Virus genome (UHGV): UHGV-1580203
Strand: one strand, 5' to 3'
Length of the DNA stretch: 11,573 nt
Source: a virus
The notes under the pieces are model-generated. The model saw only the letters and a list, made by a program, of their open reading frames with translations, ran no database searches and was not told the origin of the DNA. Positions 1,232 to 11,353 of the stretch are shown here, one piece after another (the stretch's first letter is position 1; the number at the start of each line of letters is the position of its first letter). Position numbers and translations under genes: made by a program.

Positions 1232-1458
1232 TTTCTTTCCTCTGTTATGCCATCACCCGCGCTCACTTGGACAGTATGCAGCGGAGACTGAAGCGCCGCA
1301 ATGCAAGCTTGCCGTGTTGTGAGGTAAGGAGATTTTGGCTTGGTTGGATCTTTACGTGTTGCCTGTAGGCGGCCTGTTCGTATCCAGTTGGTGGCGGTTG
1401 GTCTGGATATCTTAAGAAACTGACAGGCCTCATCGAGTGTGAGGCTGTATGGCTCCAT
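1087..1458 (-). CDS. xis: Excisionase (Xis), start taken at internal Met of the 151-aa ORF
   Basis: Internal start [31 protein letters not shown], a helix-turn-helix excisionase-like N-terminus; the ATG overlaps the upstream gene stop as TAATG (1456-1460); 3' end overlaps int by about 145 nt, so C-terminal extent is uncertain. Confidence 0.7.
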
Positions 1459-1763
1459 TATTTCACCTCTTGCTGTGTCATTGTTGAAAAATGGATACCA
1501 GCTCGTTGCTGCCAGACGATCCAACCGAGAGTCATATCCCATGCCATGTATTCGTTATCGCCGTTTTTTACTCTCCGACGATCTACTAAGTCACCGAAAC
1601 GCTTTTCCATGAATAATTCATAGGCTTCGCGTTCATCTGGCTCTACTTCCAGAGATACGAGTGCGATTTCATAAGCACGGCGCTCAATATCGTCTCGAAC
1701 CTCTAGGCTGCTGATTCGTTCTTTGATTTCTTTAATCAGTTCTTTATTGGTAAATGTGGTCAT
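1458..1763 (-). CDS. yfdT: Hypothetical early protein, YfdT-like (101 aa)
   Basis: ORF of 101 aa translationally coupled on both sides (TAATG overlaps at 1761-1765 and 1456-1460); length and position match my recollection of CPS-53 yfdT; function unknown. Confidence 0.65.
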   Translation of the reverse strand: MTTFTNKELIKEIKERISSLEVRDDIERRAYEIALVSLEVEPDEREAYELFMEKRFGDLVDRRRVKNGDNEYMAWDMTLGWIVWQQRAGIHFSTMTQQEVK

Positions 1764-2125
1764 TATGCTCCAGCCTCCGGTGCTTTTGGCATTACTGCCC
1801 AGTGAGTGATATTGACGTTTTCAAGGTCCCCGACCTGAAATGTCCACTGCCATTCTCCGGTTTCTTTTTGTCCCCAGGTGTACCAGAGAGAACGCCAGCC
1901 AATCAGCCAGCCTTCTCCATTAGCATCAAATAACAGAACACTTTCATTTGCTGGTGGCAGTTCAGCTGACACTGGTATTATTTTGTTTTCCAGTGCCGCA
2001 CATTTAGCTTCAAGCGCGTCGAATTTACGTAACAGGTACTCAGCATTTGTTTCATTCACTTTCAGATCTCGCGGTACACATTTCCCGCGAAGAAACCCTT
2101 CCATTTCGAAAACATTCATGCGCAT
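1763..2125 (-). CDS. yfdS: Hypothetical early protein, YfdS-like (120 aa)
   Basis: 120-aa ORF in the same operon, Trp-rich C-terminal half; overlaps the upstream gene by 10 nt; length and order match my recollection of yfdS; function unknown. Confidence 0.65.
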   Translation of the reverse strand: MRMNVFEMEGFLRGKCVPRDLKVNETNAEYLLRKFDALEAKCAALENKIIPVSAELPPANESVLLFDANGEGWLIGWRSLWYTWGQKETGEWQWTFQVGDLENVNITHWAVMPKAPEAGA

Positions 2126-2652
2126 TTGCGTAACTCCGATAAATCGTTAAAACGTTCCATAAACATCCCGTAGGCATGACCCGGTGCCAGTGGAATCACG
2201 TTGAACATCTCTGTTGCCGGGATGCCTTCCAGTACAGGCCAGAAAGAGCCATCATCAAGCCCGAGATCGCGGCGTTCGGTTGCCAGCATGATGAGATCGG
2301 CATATTTCACGGGTGTACTCATAACTGGGGGTAACCCGTATTCCTCACGGATTACGGCGTCTATTTTTTCTTCCATCCGTTTATAGTCAGGAAGAAGGCG
2401 TTTCAGTGGTGCGGGAATGTCCTGGCAATACGCTTCTGTTGCATCATGCATTAACGCTTCAAAAGCAAATTCCTGCGGCACCAGCTGGCTGCAAAGAACC
2501 GCATGTTGGGCGACGCTGTAGAAGTGCGAAAGATGACCGGCAAAGCGACAGATATTTGAAAGGGAAACCGCGATATCGTTAATATCGATGTCGTCTTTAT
2601 TTATCTTGTCATAATAAAAATGCTTCCCGGAAAAAGTTTTAATAAATGACAT
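2116..2652 (-). CDS. yfdR: HD-domain phosphohydrolase (YfdR/YfbR-like 5'-deoxynucleotidase family), start at Met10 of the listed ORF
   Basis: Contains H...H and MHDATE (HD) metal-binding motifs; RBS GGAGAACAAA immediately upstream of the ATG at 2652 gives a 178-aa product; the longer ORF start at 2679 lacks an RBS. Confidence 0.8.
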   Translation of the reverse strand: MSFIKTFSGKHFYYDKINKDDIDINDIAVSLSNICRFAGHLSHFYSVAQHAVLCSQLVPQEFAFEALMHDATEAYCQDIPAPLKRLLPDYKRMEEKIDAVIREEYGLPPVMSTPVKYADLIMLATERRDLGLDDGSFWPVLEGIPATEMFNVIPLAPGHAYGMFMERFNDLSELRKCA

Positions 2653-2745
2653 TTTGTTCTCCACGTATATGCACTGCACCGCGCTGAATTCTGGTAAAAG
2701 GAAGCCCTCACCATCCGGTGATTATTGAGTTAATTACGTTTCCAT

Positions 2746-2767
2746 AAATGCCCCCGCAGGGGCATTT
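2746..2767. other. Intergenic 9-bp perfect hairpin (AAATGCCCC-CGCA-GGGGCATTT) without U-tract, between yfdQ-like and yfdR-like genes
   Basis: Seen directly; no T-run on either strand, so not a canonical intrinsic terminator. Confidence 0.5.
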
Positions 2768-2779
2768 GCAGTAATGAAA

Positions 2780-3604
2780 TCAGGCGGTGAAAGTACCAAT
2801 AAAGGTTTCTACTTTGCTGTCTTTGAATTTCTCAACAAGCAGATCACGAAATTCGTTAGCCATTTCTTCCTGCACCGCTTCCAGCTGAATAATGCGCAGA
2901 ACCAGTACAGGACGATCGCCAGTGATAATGCTGAGGCGTAATTTAAACGGACGTTCTTTCAGACCTTCAAACGGAACGCATTTAAATTCAAATGCCACTG
3001 GCATAATGTCTTTGGTCTTCGCTTCGACAGACTCCATCAGGGAGCGTTTGCCGCTGAAGTCATTATCTTCAAAATCAGCGGTCTGGTTTGCTTCAATCGT
3101 GATTTTACGGACTGCCGCAGCCGCTTTTGTTGCTTGAATGGCGTCACCATTAGCATCAAAGCCCACAAGGTAGTCGGCCCAGTCTTCGATCCATTCTGCC
3201 AGTGACCTCTGGGAGTTACGCTCGCCGTTAACAGACAACAGAGCAGAGAACGGTGCTGTCTTTTTCAGTTTGAGAGTGGCAGTGTTATCTGCGTGACCTG
3301 GCTCATCAATAGTACCCAGGTTAAGCACACTGACGGCACGCATATTATCGGCATCGATAAAGCAGCGGGTGCCTTCATCTGCAAGATCTTTAGAATAACG
3401 GGTAAAATCATCGATGCTGGCAGTGGAAAGTGCACCACGGAAACGGAAGCGATTTAAATTAAATTTTTCCAGATCATGAATGCGGAAATTCTCAGGCAAT
3501 GCCACAGCATCGGCACCAATCTTACTGATAATTTCATTAACACCCTGAGCAGAAATAAGGGCATGGATTTGATTAATTGCGGTTGCGTCTAAGTTCTGAG
3601 ACAT
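2780..3604 (-). CDS. yfdQ: Hypothetical phage protein, YfdQ-like (DUF2303-type by recollection), 274 aa
   Basis: 274-aa ORF with RBS GAGGA about 9 nt upstream of the ATG at 3604; N-terminus [21 protein letters not shown] matches what I recall for E. coli YfdQ; function unknown. Confidence 0.8.
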
Positions 3605-3669
3605 AATAAGTCCTCACTATATAAAGATATTCAGTGATGAGATAAATAATCAGTTTATTACGAACGATA

Positions 3670-4032
3670 TTAACGACCTGCTGCGCGGAGTTTTCCGTCA
3701 GGTTCACCGGCAAGAGTCAGTAATTGTCCCTGGTCTTCCTGCAGAATAGTCAGGCGACCACCGCGATTGACATACATCGGCGTTTCGGTGGTGTCTTCTT
3801 CGGAAATTTTCCCGCGGTTAGTTGGGCGAACATATGAGAGTTTGTGTTTGATTTTCACACGGTTCTCATCAAACGGTTCGATTTCCAGATTGAGTGAGAC
3901 CTTCCCTTTGGTTTTCGTGTTCATCACACCGGAAGCGACCTCACTGAGAACTGCGCCGATTTTGGTTTCAAATACGCCGCCGTCCAGCTCCCCGATAAAT
4001 GCCTGCACATCAGTACTGCGTTCGCTAGCCAT
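3670..4032 (-). CDS. yfdP: Hypothetical phage protein, YfdP-like (120 aa), start at internal Met of the 182-aa ORF
   Basis: Internal start MASERSTDVQ preceded by RBS AGGAG with 7-nt spacing; the upstream 62 codons of the listed ORF are GC-rich and not protein-like; 120-aa length matches recollection of yfdP. Confidence 0.65.
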   Translation of the reverse strand: MASERSTDVQAFIGELDGGVFETKIGAVLSEVASGVMNTKTKGKVSLNLEIEPFDENRVKIKHKLSYVRPTNRGKISEEDTTETPMYVNRGGRLTILQEDQGQLLTLAGEPDGKLRAAGR

Positions 4033-4080
4033 TTTGCTGCTCCTCATCATATCGACCCTGCAAGGTCGGTTGGTTTCTCC

Positions 4081-4169
4081 ACAAAACAGAGAAGAACACC
4101 TGCGGTGGCAGCCGCCCGGATGGATTGGGTTATGAGCCCGTCGTCCGGTGATGCTCTTCTCTGTTTTGT
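4081..4169. repeat. Long imperfect inverted repeat (18-bp arms, one mismatch) flanking a 53-bp GC-rich core
   Basis: Seen: 4081-4098 ACAAAACAGAGAAGAACA versus reverse complement of 4152-4169 (ACAAAACAGAGAAGAGCA); on the minus-strand RNA the mismatch becomes a G-U wobble, giving an 18-bp stem; inner segment has CCGGA/TCCGG pairing. Confidence 0.6.
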
Positions 4170-4460
4170 AAAAAGAGCGGTGCCAGCCGGAAGCAAGTGT
4201 ACAAACTGGTACCGCCAAAGCAGTGGCTGTTGTGGTGCCGGGTGCCTCCCGGTGCCTGGCGAAGGTTGCACACCAGGCGGGTGGGTATCCACAGAAGGTC
4301 GACTGTCAGCCTCAACCTTAACCCGCGTGCGCTGAGCCGCATTCACCACAACGCTAAGGATTCTCTCTGGTTGAAAATACTTAGCTGTTATGTGCCTGCT
4401 TTTAGCCACATCAGGCGAGGTGGACCTGGTTATTCCCCAACAACAAGGATTCGGTTAATC

Positions 4461-4489
4461 TTGATACCCCCAATAACATGGTGATTATT
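4461..4489 (+). promoter_or_regulatory. Candidate promoter for the 167-aa plus-strand gene (-35-like TTGATA, A/T-rich -10-like GATTAT/TTATTT)
   Basis: TTGATA at 4461-4466 and a -10-like hexamer 16-18 bp downstream, ending a few bp before the ATG at 4494 (transcript would be near-leaderless); by eye only. Confidence 0.3.
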
Positions 4490-4493
4490 TAAG

Positions 4494-4997
4494 ATGGACA
4501 AATTTGATAGAAGTGCACAAAGGCAGTTGTTACAAATACTGTATGATGCTCATCCTTATGAAATTTCTGATGATGCGTTGCAGTCTGTTCGTGACGCATT
4601 TGGAGATGATAATGTCCTAATTTCGAACTTAATTTATCTCGAAGAACATGGCTTGATTAAGAATGCTCTTGATTATTACTTGGATGGCATAAATATAAAT
4701 ATTCCTGAATTAAGAATTACTAAAGATGGAATTGATTTCATTCGTGATGATGGAGGTCTTAAAGCTATTCTTGGGATTATGACAATAAGATTGCATGATG
4801 AGACTCTCTGTGAACTTGAACGTATCATCAATAGTTCTACTTCTGCCACGACTGAAGATAAGAAGAAATTACTCTCTCAGCTTCGAACGCTTCCTGCCGA
4901 CGCCATAAAACAGCTGACGATTCGATTACTTGGTCAGGGGCTTGACCATCTGCCGGACGTATTTCACGTAATTCAAAAAGCCCTCCATTCTCTGTAA
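4494..4997 (+). CDS. Orphan 167-aa protein, unknown function (AT-rich moron in the immunity-adjacent slot)
   Basis: Uninterrupted 167-codon frame through visibly A/T-rich DNA with A/T-ending codons, opposite in orientation to the flanking early-left operon; followed by a plus-strand intrinsic terminator at 5175-5198; no family recognised. Confidence 0.6.
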   Translation: MDKFDRSAQRQLLQILYDAHPYEISDDALQSVRDAFGDDNVLISNLIYLEEHGLIKNALDYYLDGININIPELRITKDGIDFIRDDGGLKAILGIMTIRLHDETLCELERIINSSTSATTEDKKKLLSQLRTLPADAIKQLTIRLLGQGLDHLPDVFHVIQKALHSL

Positions 4998-5130
4998 ATT
5001 CTGATTCTGGTCGGATTAGACAGAATCGTCCCCATCCGACCTGCTTACTAAGTAGAATCCAGAATTCGTCTTGTTGGTTGGTGCTGATAAAAAATCCATT
5101 AGGATGAACGTAAGCACAGAATATGACCAT
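4837..5130 (-). CDS. Possible small protein (97 aa) antisense-overlapping the 3' end of the 167-aa gene; uncertain
   Basis: ATG at 5130 preceded by AAAGAGGGTTCT (GAGGG RBS, about 5-nt spacing); first ORF downstream of the putative pL; overlaps the convergent gene by about 160 nt, so it may be a shadow ORF. Confidence 0.25.
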   Translation of the reverse strand: MVIFCAYVHPNGFFISTNQQDEFWILLSKQVGWGRFCLIRPESEFTENGGLFELREIRPADGQAPDQVIESSAVLWRRQEAFEAERVISSYLQSWQK

Positions 5131-5159
5131 AGAACCCTCTTTTGTTACGGGGATACTAA

Positions 5160-5174
5160 GATTGTTAAAGAGCT
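5160..5174 (-). promoter_or_regulatory. boxA-like element (AGCTCTTTAACAATC on minus strand) immediately 3' of the antisense hairpin
   Basis: Minus-strand sequence GCTCTTTAACAAT is a 13-nt contiguous match to the rrn-type boxA consensus as I recall it (TGCTCTTTAACAATTTATCA); lies on the pL-transcribed strand directly after the 5198-5175 hairpin. Confidence 0.45.
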
Positions 5175-5198
5175 AAGCGTCCTGTAGGGCGCTTTTTT
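5175..5198 (+). terminator. Rho-independent terminator for the 167-aa gene transcript
   Basis: Stem AAGCGTCC (5175-5182) / GGGCGCTT (5187-5194) with one G-U pair, loop TGTA, then run of six T (5193-5198). Confidence 0.6.
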
Positions 5199-5364
5199 GT
5201 TGCTAACGAATCATCCTGGACTTCATATGCCCCAGGCGGCTACTTCGTGGGCGTCCTGCCTGTTCGTTTTTGACATTTACTGACTGCTTACGACACATGC
5301 ACCGTGTTGCAACCAGATTTTGTTGTAATCCTGTAGTTGGTCTGGAACAAAAGATAAAATTAAA

Positions 5365-5401
5365 TTGCGAGATATGCAAGTGATATTTGCGAGATATGCA
5401 A
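5365..5401. promoter_or_regulatory. OL-like operator pair: two identical 15-bp sites TTGCGAGATATGCAA separated by 7 bp, with overlapping leftward promoter (pL-like)
   Basis: Seen: exact direct repeat at 5365-5379 and 5387-5401; same TTGCGNGATANGCAA pattern as the site at 6169-6183 in the cI-cro intergenic region; minus-strand TTGCAT -35-like hexamers lie within the sites. Confidence 0.6.
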
Positions 5402-5410
5402 ATTTATAGG

Positions 5411-5435
5411 TAATAAAAAGCCACCTTTCGGTGGC
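5411..5435 (-). terminator. Rho-independent terminator downstream of cI
   Basis: On minus-strand RNA: GCCACC-GAAA-GGUGGC (6-bp stem, GNRA-type tetraloop) followed by UUUUUAUUA; 20 nt downstream of the cI stop. Confidence 0.65.
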
Positions 5436-5455
5436 CGATGGATGGGATATTGAGG

Positions 5456-6148
5456 TTAATTATGTCTCTTAAGGGTTTGCGACTGACTGATTAAGACCTT
5501 TCCAAAGACCATGAATCGGTGTTCGTTTTCGCTAGTAATTCCCCATTCACGGTAAATCTGGTTATCAGAAATCACCAGCAGTTTGTCAGGAATCATTTGA
5601 AGTCTTTTAACGTATATTTTGTCATCAAAACCAAAGACATATATACCATCACCATCAAACTGATTGATGCTGACATCAACGAAGATGAGATCTCCTGGCT
5701 CAATGGTTGGACACATACTGTCCCCACGAACGTTGATAACTTTGATGTGATTGGCTGGTCGTCCGCCGAACATTGATACAGCATTATCAGTTCTGTATTC
5801 GATGGCATGAATCACATCAATGACATCACCGCCCTGGATAAGGCCATTTCCCGCACTGGCACTGATATCCAGCATTTCAATACGGAACACATCCTTCACC
5901 TGCGCAACATCCTCATTATTACTGTTTTTATATACAGTATTACTTTTGTGGGCAGAGGTAAAGAGATCAGCAATATCAACACCTAAGCTCTTGGCAATAT
6001 TACTCAGTGTTTGTTCGGTAAATTGTTTTTGCTTACCCGTTTCTAAGCGCGAGATGTTCGCCGCATCTACTCCTATCGCTTCAGCGAGATCGGCGATTTT
6101 CATGTTCTTCGCTTGGCGAAGTTGTCTGACTCGGTTTCCTATGTTCAT
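5456..6148 (-). CDS. cI: CI-type prophage repressor (N-terminal HTH, C-terminal LexA-like S24 autopeptidase domain)
   Basis: 230 aa; N-terminal HTH (VRQLRQAKNMKIADLAEAIGVDAANISRLETGK); C-terminal GDSM (catalytic Ser) and VKRL (catalytic Lys) motifs of the S24 family; divergent from a cro-like gene. Confidence 0.93.
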   Translation of the reverse strand: MNIGNRVRQLRQAKNMKIADLAEAIGVDAANISRLETGKQKQFTEQTLSNIAKSLGVDIADLFTSAHKSNTVYKNSNNEDVAQVKDVFRIEMLDISASAGNGLIQGGDVIDVIHAIEYRTDNAVSMFGGRPANHIKVINVRGDSMCPTIEPGDLIFVDVSINQFDGDGIYVFGFDDKIYVKRLQMIPDKLLVISDNQIYREWGITSENEHRFMVFGKVLISQSQTLKRHN

Positions 6149-6245
6149 GCGTTTATTACATTTCTTTATTGCGTGATAAGCAAATCAACTTGCGCAAAAT
6201 AATTGCGTGAAATAACATGCATAACGCGCAATATTTGGAGGGCGT
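6149..6245. promoter_or_regulatory. OR region with divergent PRM/PR-like promoters and about three operator sites
   Basis: Sites fitting TTGCGNGATANGCAA at 6169-6183 (best), 6203-6217 (weaker) and 6217-6231 (inverted); minus-strand -10-like TGTAAT (6155-6160) placed so the cI mRNA would start at or near its AUG (no SD upstream of cI); GGAGG RBS at 6237-6241 for cro. Confidence 0.65.
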
Positions 6246-6506
6246 ATGCAATCACCATTACGAAATGTGCGTAAGGCGCATGGTTTCACTTTGCAGCATG
6301 TTGCTGCGGGTGTTCAAGTCAATCCAGCGACGTTGAGTCGTATTGAGAGGCTGGAGCAGATTCCATCTATCGAGCTTGCAGAACGTTTAGCCAATTTTTT
6401 TAAGGGTGAAGTCAGCGAAATGCAGATTCTTTATCCGGCACGTTTTCAATCTAGCCAAAACCAGAATGGGTTTAAACCACAGGAACAGGAGGTGAACCGT
6501 GGGTAA
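6246..6506 (+). CDS. cro: Cro-like HTH transcriptional regulator (XRE family)
   Basis: 86 aa; HTH segment GFTLQHVAAGVQVNPATLSRIERLEQ; first gene rightward of the operator region, divergent from cI; GGAGG RBS. Confidence 0.88.
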   Translation: MQSPLRNVRKAHGFTLQHVAAGVQVNPATLSRIERLEQIPSIELAERLANFFKGEVSEMQILYPARFQSSQNQNGFKPQEQEVNRG

Positions 6507-8338: not shown

Positions 8339-8827
8339 ATGAGTCTTTTGAATGAAGTTCAGAAATTCATTGAAGCCCATCCGGGATGTACTTCCGGAGA
8401 CATTGCGGATGCTTTTGCAGGTTACTCACGGCAGCGCGTTCTGCAGTCAGCAAGCAAGTTACGTCAGAGTGGGCGTGTGGCTCACCGTTGTGAAGGAGAT
8501 ACACGCAGACATTTCCCGCGCCTGACTGAGAGAGCGCAGGAACCGGAACCACAACCAGTTCGAGAAACCAGACCTGTGCGCAATTTCTATGTCGGCACTA
8601 ACGATCCACGGGTGATTTTGTGCCTGACCCGCCAGGCTGAAGAACTGGAGTCCAGGGGCTTATACCGTCGTGCTGCAACCGTGTGGATGGCGGCATTCCG
8701 TGAAAGCCACTCCCAGCCAGAACGAAACAATTTTCTGGCGCGTCGTGAGCGGTGCTTACGGAAAAGCAGCAAGCGCGCTGCATCGGGTGAAGAGTGGTAT
8801 CTGTCAGGGAATTACGTGGGGGCTTAA
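8339..8827 (+). CDS. Hypothetical protein with C-terminal PerC-like motif (putative transcriptional regulator)
   Basis: Start taken at ATG 8339 (RBS AGGGGG; GTG 8333 also possible); C-terminal GLYRRAATVWMAAFRESHSQPERNNFLARRERC resembles the PerC-family signature as I recall it; family call is tentative. Confidence 0.6.
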   Translation: MSLLNEVQKFIEAHPGCTSGDIADAFAGYSRQRVLQSASKLRQSGRVAHRCEGDTRRHFPRLTERAQEPEPQPVRETRPVRNFYVGTNDPRVILCLTRQAEELESRGLYRRAATVWMAAFRESHSQPERNNFLARRERCLRKSSKRAASGEEWYLSGNYVGA

Positions 8828-9153
8828 TGACGACGTTAACTCAATGCCAGCAGCAGGTGCTGGATATGCTGATTTCTTACCAGAAAGAACGTGGCTTCCC
8901 GCCAACCAATCAGGAGGTGGCTACCATGCTGGGATACCGTTCAGTGAATGCAGCGGTGGAGCATCTTCGCGCACTGGAGAAAAAAGGCGTCATCACGATA
9001 AAGCGTGGCGTGGCCCGGGGCATCACGCTTCATACCGCGGTGAAGGACGACGACAGCGAGGTGGCCGGGATTATCCGCGCACTGCTTGCTGGTGAGGAAA
9101 ACGCCAGGCTGCGTGCAGCCCACTGGTTACATGAGAGGGGGCTGAAAGTATGA
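8827..9153 (+). CDS. LexA N-terminal DNA-binding-domain protein lacking the S24 peptidase domain (108 aa)
   Basis: LTQCQQQVLDMLISYQKERGFPPTNQEVATMLGYRSVNAAVEHLRALEKKGVITIKRGVARGITL closely parallels the LexA winged-helix N-domain (LTxRQxEV...GxPPTRxEIAxxLGFRSPNAAEEHLKALxRKGVIEI); start ATG 8827 overlaps the upstream stop (TAATG); no Ser/Lys protease domain follows. Confidence 0.75.
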   Translation: MTTLTQCQQQVLDMLISYQKERGFPPTNQEVATMLGYRSVNAAVEHLRALEKKGVITIKRGVARGITLHTAVKDDDSEVAGIIRALLAGEENARLRAAHWLHERGLKV

Positions 9154-9558: not shown

Positions 9559-10356
9559 ATGAATAATCTGATGGTCATTGATGGTATTGAAGTTCGTCGT
9601 GATGCTTATGGGCGTTACAGCCTGAACGATCTGCACAGGGCTGCCGGTTCTCTGGATAAGCATAAGCCTGCATTCTGGCTCCGCAATGAGCAAACTGAAC
9701 GTTTAATAAGCGAGTTGCAGATTTGCAACTCGGTCAATATAGAGCCAGTTAACGTTATTCGTGGCGGAAATAACCAGGGGACGTATGTCTGCAAAGAACT
9801 GGTGTATGCCTATGCAATGTGGATCAGCCCGTCATTCCATCTGAAGGTGATCCGTACTTTCGATATGGTAACCAGCGCATCGGAAAAATTATCCGGGCAG
9901 GCTGCTGACAAGATGCAGGCTGGCGTGATTCTGCTGGACTTTATGCGCCGGGAGTTAAACCTGTCTAACTCTTCAGTGCTTGGTGCCTGTCAGAAACTCC
10001 AGGAGGCTGTTGGCTTACCGAATCTGGCACCGCGCTATGCCATTGATGCTCCTGCTGACGCGCCTGATGGCTCAAGCCGCCCCACGCTGTCACTGAGTGC
10101 ACTGCTGAAGCAGTATGGTATCCGCCTGACAGCTAATCAGGCATATCACCAGATGGTGAAGCTGGGGATCGTCGAGCAGCGCGAACGATACAGCCGTACC
10201 GCGATTAACAACATCAAAAAATTCTGGTCGCTGACAGCGAAAGGCTGCATGTTCGGCAAGAACATCACCAGTCCCGCAAATCCGCGCGAGACGCAGCCGC
10301 ATTTCTTCGAATCCCGATTCCCTGAGCTGTTAAAGCTGCTCGATACCGTTCATTGA
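9559..10356 (+). CDS. KilA-N domain protein (putative antirepressor-type DNA-binding protein), start at Met12 of the listed ORF
   Basis: N-terminus MNNLMVIDGIEVRRDAYGRYSLNDLHRAAG...FWLRNEQTERLI is typical of KilA-N domains; RBS AAGAGGAGA upstream of ATG 9559; the listed start at 9526 lies inside rusA. Confidence 0.78.
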   Translation: MNNLMVIDGIEVRRDAYGRYSLNDLHRAAGSLDKHKPAFWLRNEQTERLISELQICNSVNIEPVNVIRGGNNQGTYVCKELVYAYAMWISPSFHLKVIRTFDMVTSASEKLSGQAADKMQAGVILLDFMRRELNLSNSSVLGACQKLQEAVGLPNLAPRYAIDAPADAPDGSSRPTLSLSALLKQYGIRLTANQAYHQMVKLGIVEQRERYSRTAINNIKKFWSLTAKGCMFGKNITSPANPRETQPHFFESRFPELLKLLDTVH

Positions 10357-10357
10357 G

Positions 10358-11353
10358 GTGACCGTGAGAGCACTATTGACCCCTGAAATTGCCCCGCGTA
10401 TGGGGATCGTATTGTTCAGGCCCGGTTCAGAGCTGATGCCCCTGTTTATGCAGGGGCGTGTACTGCTGGAGCCTGAGCCGGAGCATTATTCATCTTTCGC
10501 CAGTGGTGCCGTTCCCGCGGCATCACAACCGCTGGCGGATGATCCTGCCGTTCGGGCCGTGTTCCGTAATGAGGCAGTGATTCGTCGTGCTGGTGGGGTG
10601 GAATGTCTTGAAAGCTGGTTACTTCGTGAAAAAGGCTGCCAGTGGCCTCATTCCGACTGGCACAGCGAGAACATGACCACAATGCGACACGCGCCGGGCG
10701 CAATCCGTCTGTGCTGGCACTGCGATAATCAGTTACGTGATCAGTTCACGGAGCGGCTGGAATCAATGGCAACGGATAACTGTGCCCGTTGGGTGTTGTC
10801 TGTAGTCCGTCGGGATCTCGATTTTAATGATAACCATGCCGTGACAATGCCGGAACTGTGCTGGTGGCTGGTTCGTAATGACCTGGCGGATGCCTTACCG
10901 GAAAGCGCAGCCCGTAAGGCACTGAGATTACCGAAGTCTGTTTTGCCGTCTGTCACCCGGGAAAGTGACCTTGTGCCTTCGGTTCCTGCCACCAGCATCA
11001 TCCAGGATAAGGCGAAAAAGGTGCTGGCGCTGAAAGTGGATCCGGAGTCGCCGGAGTCTTTTATGTTACGCCCCAAACGTCGTCGCTGGGTTAATGAACA
11101 GTACACGCGCTGGGTTAAGACGCAGCCGTGTGCATGTTGTGGAAAGCCAGCTGATGATCCGCATCATCTGATAGGCCATGGTCAGGGTGGAATGGGTACA
11201 AAAGCGCATGACCTTTTTGTGCTGCCTTTGTGCAGAAAACACCACGACGAACTGCATGCGGATACCGTGGCATTTGAAGAGAAGTATGGCTCCCAGCTGG
11301 AGCTGATATTTCGTTTTATCGATCGCGCACTGGCGATTGGTGTGCTGGCCTGA
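10358..11353 (+). CDS. DUF968-like nin-region protein with C-terminal Cys/His (HNH-like) zinc-binding motif
   Basis: 331 aa; C-terminus [43 protein letters not shown] has CxxC...HH...C...HH spacing; start could be GTG 10358 or GTG 10364 (better RBS spacing); family call is recollection-based. Confidence 0.75.

Follow-up and report, generated by a model that had tools for sequence, protein, structure and literature searches.

The window analysed here, an 11,573-nt stretch of the viral genome UHGV-1580203, contains at positions 2116-2652 an open reading frame (ORF) for an HD-domain protein, and the question it raises is what such a protein does for the phage that carries it. The sequence-only reading of this DNA had proposed an HD-domain nucleotidase of the early operon, which could reshape dNMP/dNTP pools or degrade nucleotide second messengers during infection. 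Judged from sequence identity, the ORF is the prophage gene yfdR, which is already named, annotated and experimentally studied, and the enzyme is not new. We consider it highly probable that this is the yfdR of an SfII/SfIV/CPS-53-like prophage and that it encodes an HD phosphohydrolase with weak nucleotidase and DnaA-binding activities, from which we infer its role in the phage.

The ORF lies on the minus strand and runs for 178 codons from an ATG at 2652 to a TGA at 2118-2116. Its coordinates and length had been given correctly before, with the strand left unstated. The frame stays open further upstream to a GTG at 2679, which would give 187 aa (mechanical ORF list), and we preferred the ATG because a GGAG lies 6 nt upstream of it. 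In a 100%-identical chromosome, the RefSeq yfdR (9717-10253 of the locus) corresponds exactly to 2116-2652 of the window.

2116-2652, minus strand: yfdR coding sequence, 178 aa, HD-domain phosphohydrolase with H50, H69-D70, E73, D78 and D119 (translation, K-12 identity, alignment)
2659-2662, minus strand: Shine-Dalgarno sequence GGAG, 6 nt 5' of the yfdR ATG (direct sequence reading)

The plus strand of 2116-2652 holds only short ORFs of 52-61 aa, and neither these nor the promoter- and terminator-like hits there exceed shuffled controls; an alternative plus-strand feature within this interval was rejected, with 5 promoter-like sites compared with 9.0 in shuffles. Terminator-like sites were commoner than in shuffles over the whole of 1300-6400 (13 vs 4.8), and one weak site of this kind falls inside 2116-2652.

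When aligned with YfdR of Escherichia coli K-12 (b2361), a gene of the cryptic prophage CPS-53/KpLE1, the window protein is of equal length and identical at 176 of 178 positions without gaps; the two differences, V23D and K104E, affect no motif residue. The two copies also have in common the yfdP-Q-R-S-T neighbourhood and the RefSeq product name, 5'-deoxynucleotidase. Given this identity and the same neighbourhood, the published nucleotidase and DnaA-binding data for the K-12 protein transfer almost directly to the window protein. Among phages, E. coli PhiR29 and PhiR49 and the serotype-converting Shigella phages SfII and SfIV match best, and temperate phages of these kinds carry the yfdP-Q-R-S-T module too. 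Of the 5426 complete E. coli genomes, 3604, about two thirds, have the 2.9-kb block.

In YfdR, the signature of the HD superfamily of metal-dependent phosphohydrolases (Aravind & Koonin 1998) consists of H50 (VAQH), H69-D70 (LMHDATE) and D119 (KYAD), and the acidic residues E73 and D78 are conserved as well. The H...HD motifs and the 178-aa length on which the enzyme assignment had been based were thus borne out, with H50...H69-D70...D119 intact. The same reading had named loss of the His/Asp metal ligands on careful alignment as the finding that would speak against an enzyme. We aligned 51 cluster representatives, 39-67% identical to the query YfdR, and the ligands were kept in 49 to 51 of them: H50 and D78 in all 51, H69 and D70 in 50 each, and E73 and D119 in 49 each. 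By this alignment, the active site of YfdR is intact and under selection. An AlphaFold2 model (pLDDT 86, pTM 0.84) showed the all-helical HD fold, and its strongest fold neighbours were mono- and triphosphate hydrolases of the YfbR/HDDC2/DatZ/OxsA group; the cyclic-nucleotide phosphodiesterases HD-GYP and PgpH were not among its best functional fold neighbours. YfdR would then be a small all-helical metal-dependent phosphohydrolase, with the metal bound by H50, H69, D70 and D119.

The relation to YfbR needs a more careful statement. YfdR scored below the cut-offs of the Pfam YfbR-like model PF12917 (24.2 vs 25.9 bits), of HD_3 (16.9 vs 22.5 bits) and of the NCBIfam YfbR equivalog NF003009 (19.8 vs 122 bits), and it gave no match to the Pfam HD model PF01966, whereas authentic YfbR reached 258 bits on PF12917. 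These sub-threshold Pfam HD scores reflect the coverage of the models and not a loss of the motif. By both BLASTP and hhalign, the YfdR-YfbR alignment is limited to about 40-70 residues around the HD motif, in which the two proteins have in common the block H-D-x-x-E-x4-D-x-P-x-P-x-K, with H69, D70, E73 and D78 of YfdR corresponding to H68, D69, E72 and D77 of YfbR. We take E72 of YfbR to be its catalytic Glu and D77 its sugar-binding Asp, so that the block presumably handles the 5'-monophosphate and the sugar 3'-OH. A nearly invariant C35-R36-F37 lies 14 residues before H50, and R18-W19 of YfbR, its pair for phosphate binding and deoxyribose selectivity, lies 15 before H33, in a part where the alignments are unreliable. 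A global pairwise alignment for R18, W19, H33 and D137 of YfbR was dropped, being unreliable outside the HD block. Zimmerman et al. 2008 is said to describe YfdR as 'another 5'-nucleotidase in E. coli' that supports W19 of YfbR as a deoxyribose selectivity switch. By the curated thresholds, YfdR is outside the YfbR family; it shares the catalytic block and probably the chemistry. Of the earlier assignment to YfbR/YfdR-type enzymes, the YfdR half is right (99% identity to b2361, the RefSeq name and PHROG 318), and the YfbR half is too loose.

A better home for the protein is a large subfamily around Atu1052 of Agrobacterium tumefaciens (PDB 2GZ4), the sole solved structure in it, which YfdR matched with E 7.5e-14 by phmmer and 3.2e-30 by profile. 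YfdR matched this Atu1052-like HD subfamily (2GZ4; PHROG 318; COG1896 in part) in full-length sequence and in fold, and it matched PHROG 318, 'deoxyribonucleoside 5' monophosphate phosphatase', with E 2.5e-109. The subfamily comprised 22,820 representatives of 50%-identity clusters at E<=1e-3 and 15,435 at E<=1e-10, and the former number places the HD match far beyond chance. These matches place the window ORF both in the YfdR orthologue group and in the Atu1052-like subfamily. To our knowledge, weakly active YfdR is the only characterised member of this YfdR/Atu1052 subfamily of more than 20,000 clusters. A literature search on Atu1052, DUF2303 and HD/prophage/DnaA/anti-defense found nothing relevant. 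Some family representatives of 350-410 aa (P0122, P0127, P0128, P0135 and P0146) match YfdR in two separate stretches and are apparent tandem double-HD proteins.

In other phages, distant genes of the YfdR family lie within modules for replication and recombination. The HD gene of Burkholderia phage vB_SBP33 (locus L006, 3468-4043) is beside DNA polymerase and ligase genes, that of Vibrio phage VpKK5 (L007, 3414-3971) is beside Sak4, SSB, Cas4-type exonuclease and helicase genes, and that of Yersinia phage YeP3 (L005, 3501-4034) has RdgC upstream. All three HD proteins fall just under the Pfam YfbR-like cut-off, as YfdR does, which points to a large subfamily without a curated Pfam model of its own. 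A general linkage between the HD gene and DUF2303 was considered and rejected: it is confined to the E. coli/Shigella module and absent from vB_SBP33, VpKK5 and YeP3.

In the window, yfdR is the third gene of a leftward module in the same yfdP-Q-R-S-T order as CPS-53, with identities to K-12 of 99% for YfdQ, 99% for YfdS and 97% for YfdT. Its other members are as follows.

3670-4032, minus strand: yfdP, 120 aa per RefSeq (locus 11271-11633), first gene of the leftward module, phrog_204
2780-3604, minus strand: yfdQ, DUF2303, 274 aa, immediately upstream of yfdR (PF10065, E 2.4e-92; 271/274 identical to K-12)
1763-2125, minus strand: yfdS, DUF551, 120 aa (119/120 identical to K-12 YfdS)
1458-1763, minus strand: yfdT, 101 aa (98/101 identical to K-12 YfdT)

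The beginning of yfdS and the end of yfdR share 10 nt, consistent with translational coupling, and the start of yfdT overlaps the yfdS stop (TAATG). The genes yfdR, yfdS and yfdT are a tightly packed, co-oriented, operon-like block. PADLOC defence models matched neither YfdR nor its five neighbours. The untranslated leader of about 460 nt 5' of yfdP contains a 25-nt inverted repeat (4081-4105/4145-4169, 84% complementary, 39-nt loop), which might form a structure in the RNA or serve as a regulatory site.

Taken as a whole, the window covers the left arm and the early region of a temperate lambdoid phage of the SfII/SfIV/CPS-53 kind integrated beside a tRNA gene, and yfdPQRST occupies the leftward, int-proximal, non-essential region between int and cI. 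The landmarks of this arrangement are the following.

1-49: truncated tRNA, 3' part with its 5' end cut (Rfam tRNA, 36 bits)
68-1231: integrase, abutting the tRNA
5365-5379 and 5387-5401, no strand assigned: a pair of identical 15-nt palindromes TTGCGAGATATGCAA directly to the left of the cI-like gene, candidate oL operators at a leftward early promoter
5456-6148, minus strand: cI-like repressor, XRE family, 230 aa, marking the immunity region
6246-6506: cro-like gene

The prophage attachment end lies at the tRNA/integrase junction. At the corresponding position, the NCTC86 chromosome, 100% identical to the window over 1400-4300, has a tRNA-Arg, and an Rfam scan of the whole window gave nothing beyond the truncated tRNA at 1-49. 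Overlapping the integrase start, a 151-aa minus-strand ORF at 1087-1542 has an internal Met that opens an excisionase-like helix-turn-helix sequence; at the equivalent position, RefSeq annotates in NCTC86 only a truncated helix-turn-helix pseudogene. The window also holds replication O-like, RusA, KilA-N and DUF968 genes. Two products of the rightward early operon may be described here, both encoded on the plus strand: a 119-aa protein at 8794-9153, a LexA-family transcriptional regulator per RefSeq in the matching NCTC86 prophage, and a 331-aa DUF968 protein at 10358-11353 with a Cys/His-rich C-terminus, called an HNH endonuclease in the SfII/SfIV records.

Whether yfdR is expressed early can be approached through the immunity region. 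The 15-nt palindrome TTGCGnGATAnGCAA has 4 matches in the window against 0.36 expected; two are the candidate oL sites, and the remaining pair, at 6169-6183 and 6217-6231, falls between cI and cro. The palindromes flanking cI probably represent the operators oL and oR of this immunity type. The position and orientation of yfdR and the operator-like sites left of cI make its placement in an early operon, as had been proposed, plausible. Between the putative leftward promoter and yfdP, however, there are a plus-strand gene at 4494-4997 and a hairpin at 5175-5194, which count against a simple single early operon. The gene at 4494-4997 is a 167-aa ORF, hypothetical in RefSeq, whose product matched phrog_3983 (unknown function, E 2.6e-59) and had no Pfam or PADLOC match. 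Its placement appears moron-like, of a kind typical of lysogen-expressed accessory or exclusion genes. The hairpin at 5175-5194, downstream of this gene, is terminator-like on the plus strand.

The best-documented activity of YfdR had gone unmentioned in the sequence-only reading, namely that it binds domains I-II of DnaA and inhibits the initiation of host replication. Noguchi & Katayama 2016 (PMC4776307) recovered yfdQ-R-S-T as a suppressor, in multicopy, of hda-185, a mutant that over-initiates, and found oriC initiation to be inhibited by additional copies of yfdQRT or of yfdQRS in wild-type, dnaAcos, seqA, DARS and diaA backgrounds. Among YfdQRST, DnaA pulled down YfdR alone from extract; the binding mapped to DnaA domains I-II, depended on Phe46 of DnaA and was reproduced with purified protein, and YfdR competed moderately with DiaA and with DnaB helicase (PMC4776307). 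In vitro, oriC replication was inhibited by extracts over-supplied with YfdQRST, and in K-12 yfdQ was required together with yfdR for the inhibition of initiation (PMC4776307). A review (PMC5448010) and PMC12122000 likewise regard YfdR as a prophage-encoded inhibitor of DnaA domain I. The authors of PMC4776307 add the caveat that the over-expression effect 'might be an artifact', and in their hands deletion of yfdQRST altered neither initiation nor hydroxyurea resistance and had no phenotype in normal growth.

The enzymatic record has reached us through later papers. Two papers that cite Zimmerman et al. 2008, PMC4776307 and PMC10870394, attribute to YfdR a phosphatase activity on nucleoside 5'-monophosphates; PMC10870394, a metabolic-engineering study, names CMP phosphatase activity on the same citation and reports that deletion of yfdR did not raise CMP yield. 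According to the same 2008 source as cited in PMC4776307, YfdR is a structural homologue of YfbR with much lower nucleotide affinities, and its function is called elusive.

Taken together, we propose the following course of events in the phage. Transcription of the yfdPQRST module would start at a leftward promoter left of cI that is under repressor control. In the lytic cycle, the module would damp initiation on the host chromosome, for which the action of lambda P on DnaA is a published analogy (PMC4776307), and damped initiation might, as our own extension of this model, free DnaB and precursors for phage replication. The conserved active site would meanwhile carry out a nucleotide-monophosphate or related phosphohydrolase reaction in support of phage DNA metabolism. 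The subfamily is far broader than the enterobacteria and occurs elsewhere without DUF2303, and the binding to DnaA may therefore be incidental or specific to one lineage. What is at stake is the natural role of the module in a functional phage, be it shut-down of host replication via DnaA or nucleotide metabolism.

The strongest competitor takes the second of these roles alone. YfdR would be purely a nucleotide-pool enzyme that hydrolyses dNMPs or NMPs during infection, for disposal or balancing, and the DnaA binding would be an over-expression artefact, a possibility that the authors of PMC4776307 concede themselves. The strong conservation of the catalytic residues across a huge family, the nucleotide phosphohydrolases as closest characterised fold neighbours, and the relatives in unrelated phages that adjoin DNA polymerase, ligase, SSB, exonuclease and ribonucleotide reductase genes all fit such an enzyme. 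[quoted passage not shown] The low affinities and the unchanged CMP accumulation also leave a major role in reshaping dNMP/dNTP pools unproven. We regard the pool-enzyme account as plausible, though clearly the less probable of the two; it is not mutually exclusive with our main reading.

Low affinity, as reported at second hand, also suggests that the physiological substrate of YfdR may not be a canonical (d)NMP. Behind the pipeline-propagated '5'-deoxynucleotidase' label there is a weak activity, and YfdR scores under the cut-offs of the YfbR family. As a speculation that we hold at low probability, the substrate of the YfdR/Atu1052 enzymes might be a modified, damaged or defence-derived nucleotide rather than a canonical (d)NMP, with catalysis perhaps coupled to DnaA in enterobacterial prophages. 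For example, YfdR could act on DnaA-bound nucleotide or sense nucleotide status, gating host initiation.

In another reading, YfdR would be a counter-defence enzyme whose HD site degrades a CBASS, Pycsar, Thoeris or type III CRISPR messenger or a toxic defence nucleotide, (d)NMPase activity being a side reaction. Anti-defence genes are common in the accessory early region of temperate phages, which is where yfdR sits, and the low affinity for canonical nucleotides in the summaries of the 2008 study leaves room for another true substrate. Against this are the lack of any match between YfdR and the defence-related models of PADLOC, fold neighbours of the YfbR/HDDC2/DatZ/OxsA type rather than HD-GYP or PgpH, and an HD-x-x-E-x4-D block presumably made of the YfbR residues for the 5'-monophosphate and the sugar 3'-OH; a search for supporting literature found none. 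We therefore judge a counter-defence role improbable, and the proposal that the protein degrades second messengers found no support, its neighbours in fold being mono- and triphosphate hydrolases. Least credible of all is a pseudo-enzyme that serves only as a DnaA-binding adaptor with a vestigial HD site: its sole recorded cellular phenotype is DnaA-related and its catalytic efficiency is relayed as poor, but the metal ligands and catalytic Glu/Asp are intact and 96-100% conserved in relatives only 39-67% identical, and enzymatic activity has been reported in the literature cited above.

Our preferred reading, a yfdR product with weak nucleotidase and DnaA-binding activities, can finally be set against known systems. 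The K-12 copy of the gene belongs to a decayed CPS-53 remnant at argW, whereas the window copy belongs to a prophage whose immunity and replication region looks intact and which has a DLP12-type integrase at a tRNA gene. YfbR (5'-deoxynucleotidase/dCMP phosphohydrolase; PF12917; PDB 2PAQ, 2PAR and 2PAU), whose family is characterised by Co2+/Mn2+-dependent hydrolysis of 2'-deoxyribonucleoside 5'-monophosphates, is the product of a housekeeping gene with, as relayed from the 2008 study, a much higher nucleotide affinity, whereas YfdR is prophage-encoded and binds DnaA. Atu1052, about 26% identical to YfdR, is a chromosomal structural-genomics HD protein without an assigned function. Phage T5 Dmp, a pre-early 5'-dNMPase, is the classical precedent for a phage enzyme that acts on nucleotide pools, and its likeness to YfdR is functional at most; homology between the two was rejected, with an hhalign probability of 0.07% and no Pfam HD match for T5 Dmp. 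On the side of replication control, lambda P and the DnaA domain I binders DiaA, Dps and Bacillus subtilis SirA modulate or inhibit oriC initiation, and they are functional analogues only, without any sequence or fold relation to the HD fold of YfdR. Lambda P binds domain III of DnaA. The Phe46 surface that YfdR engages is also that of DiaA and DnaB (PMC4776307).
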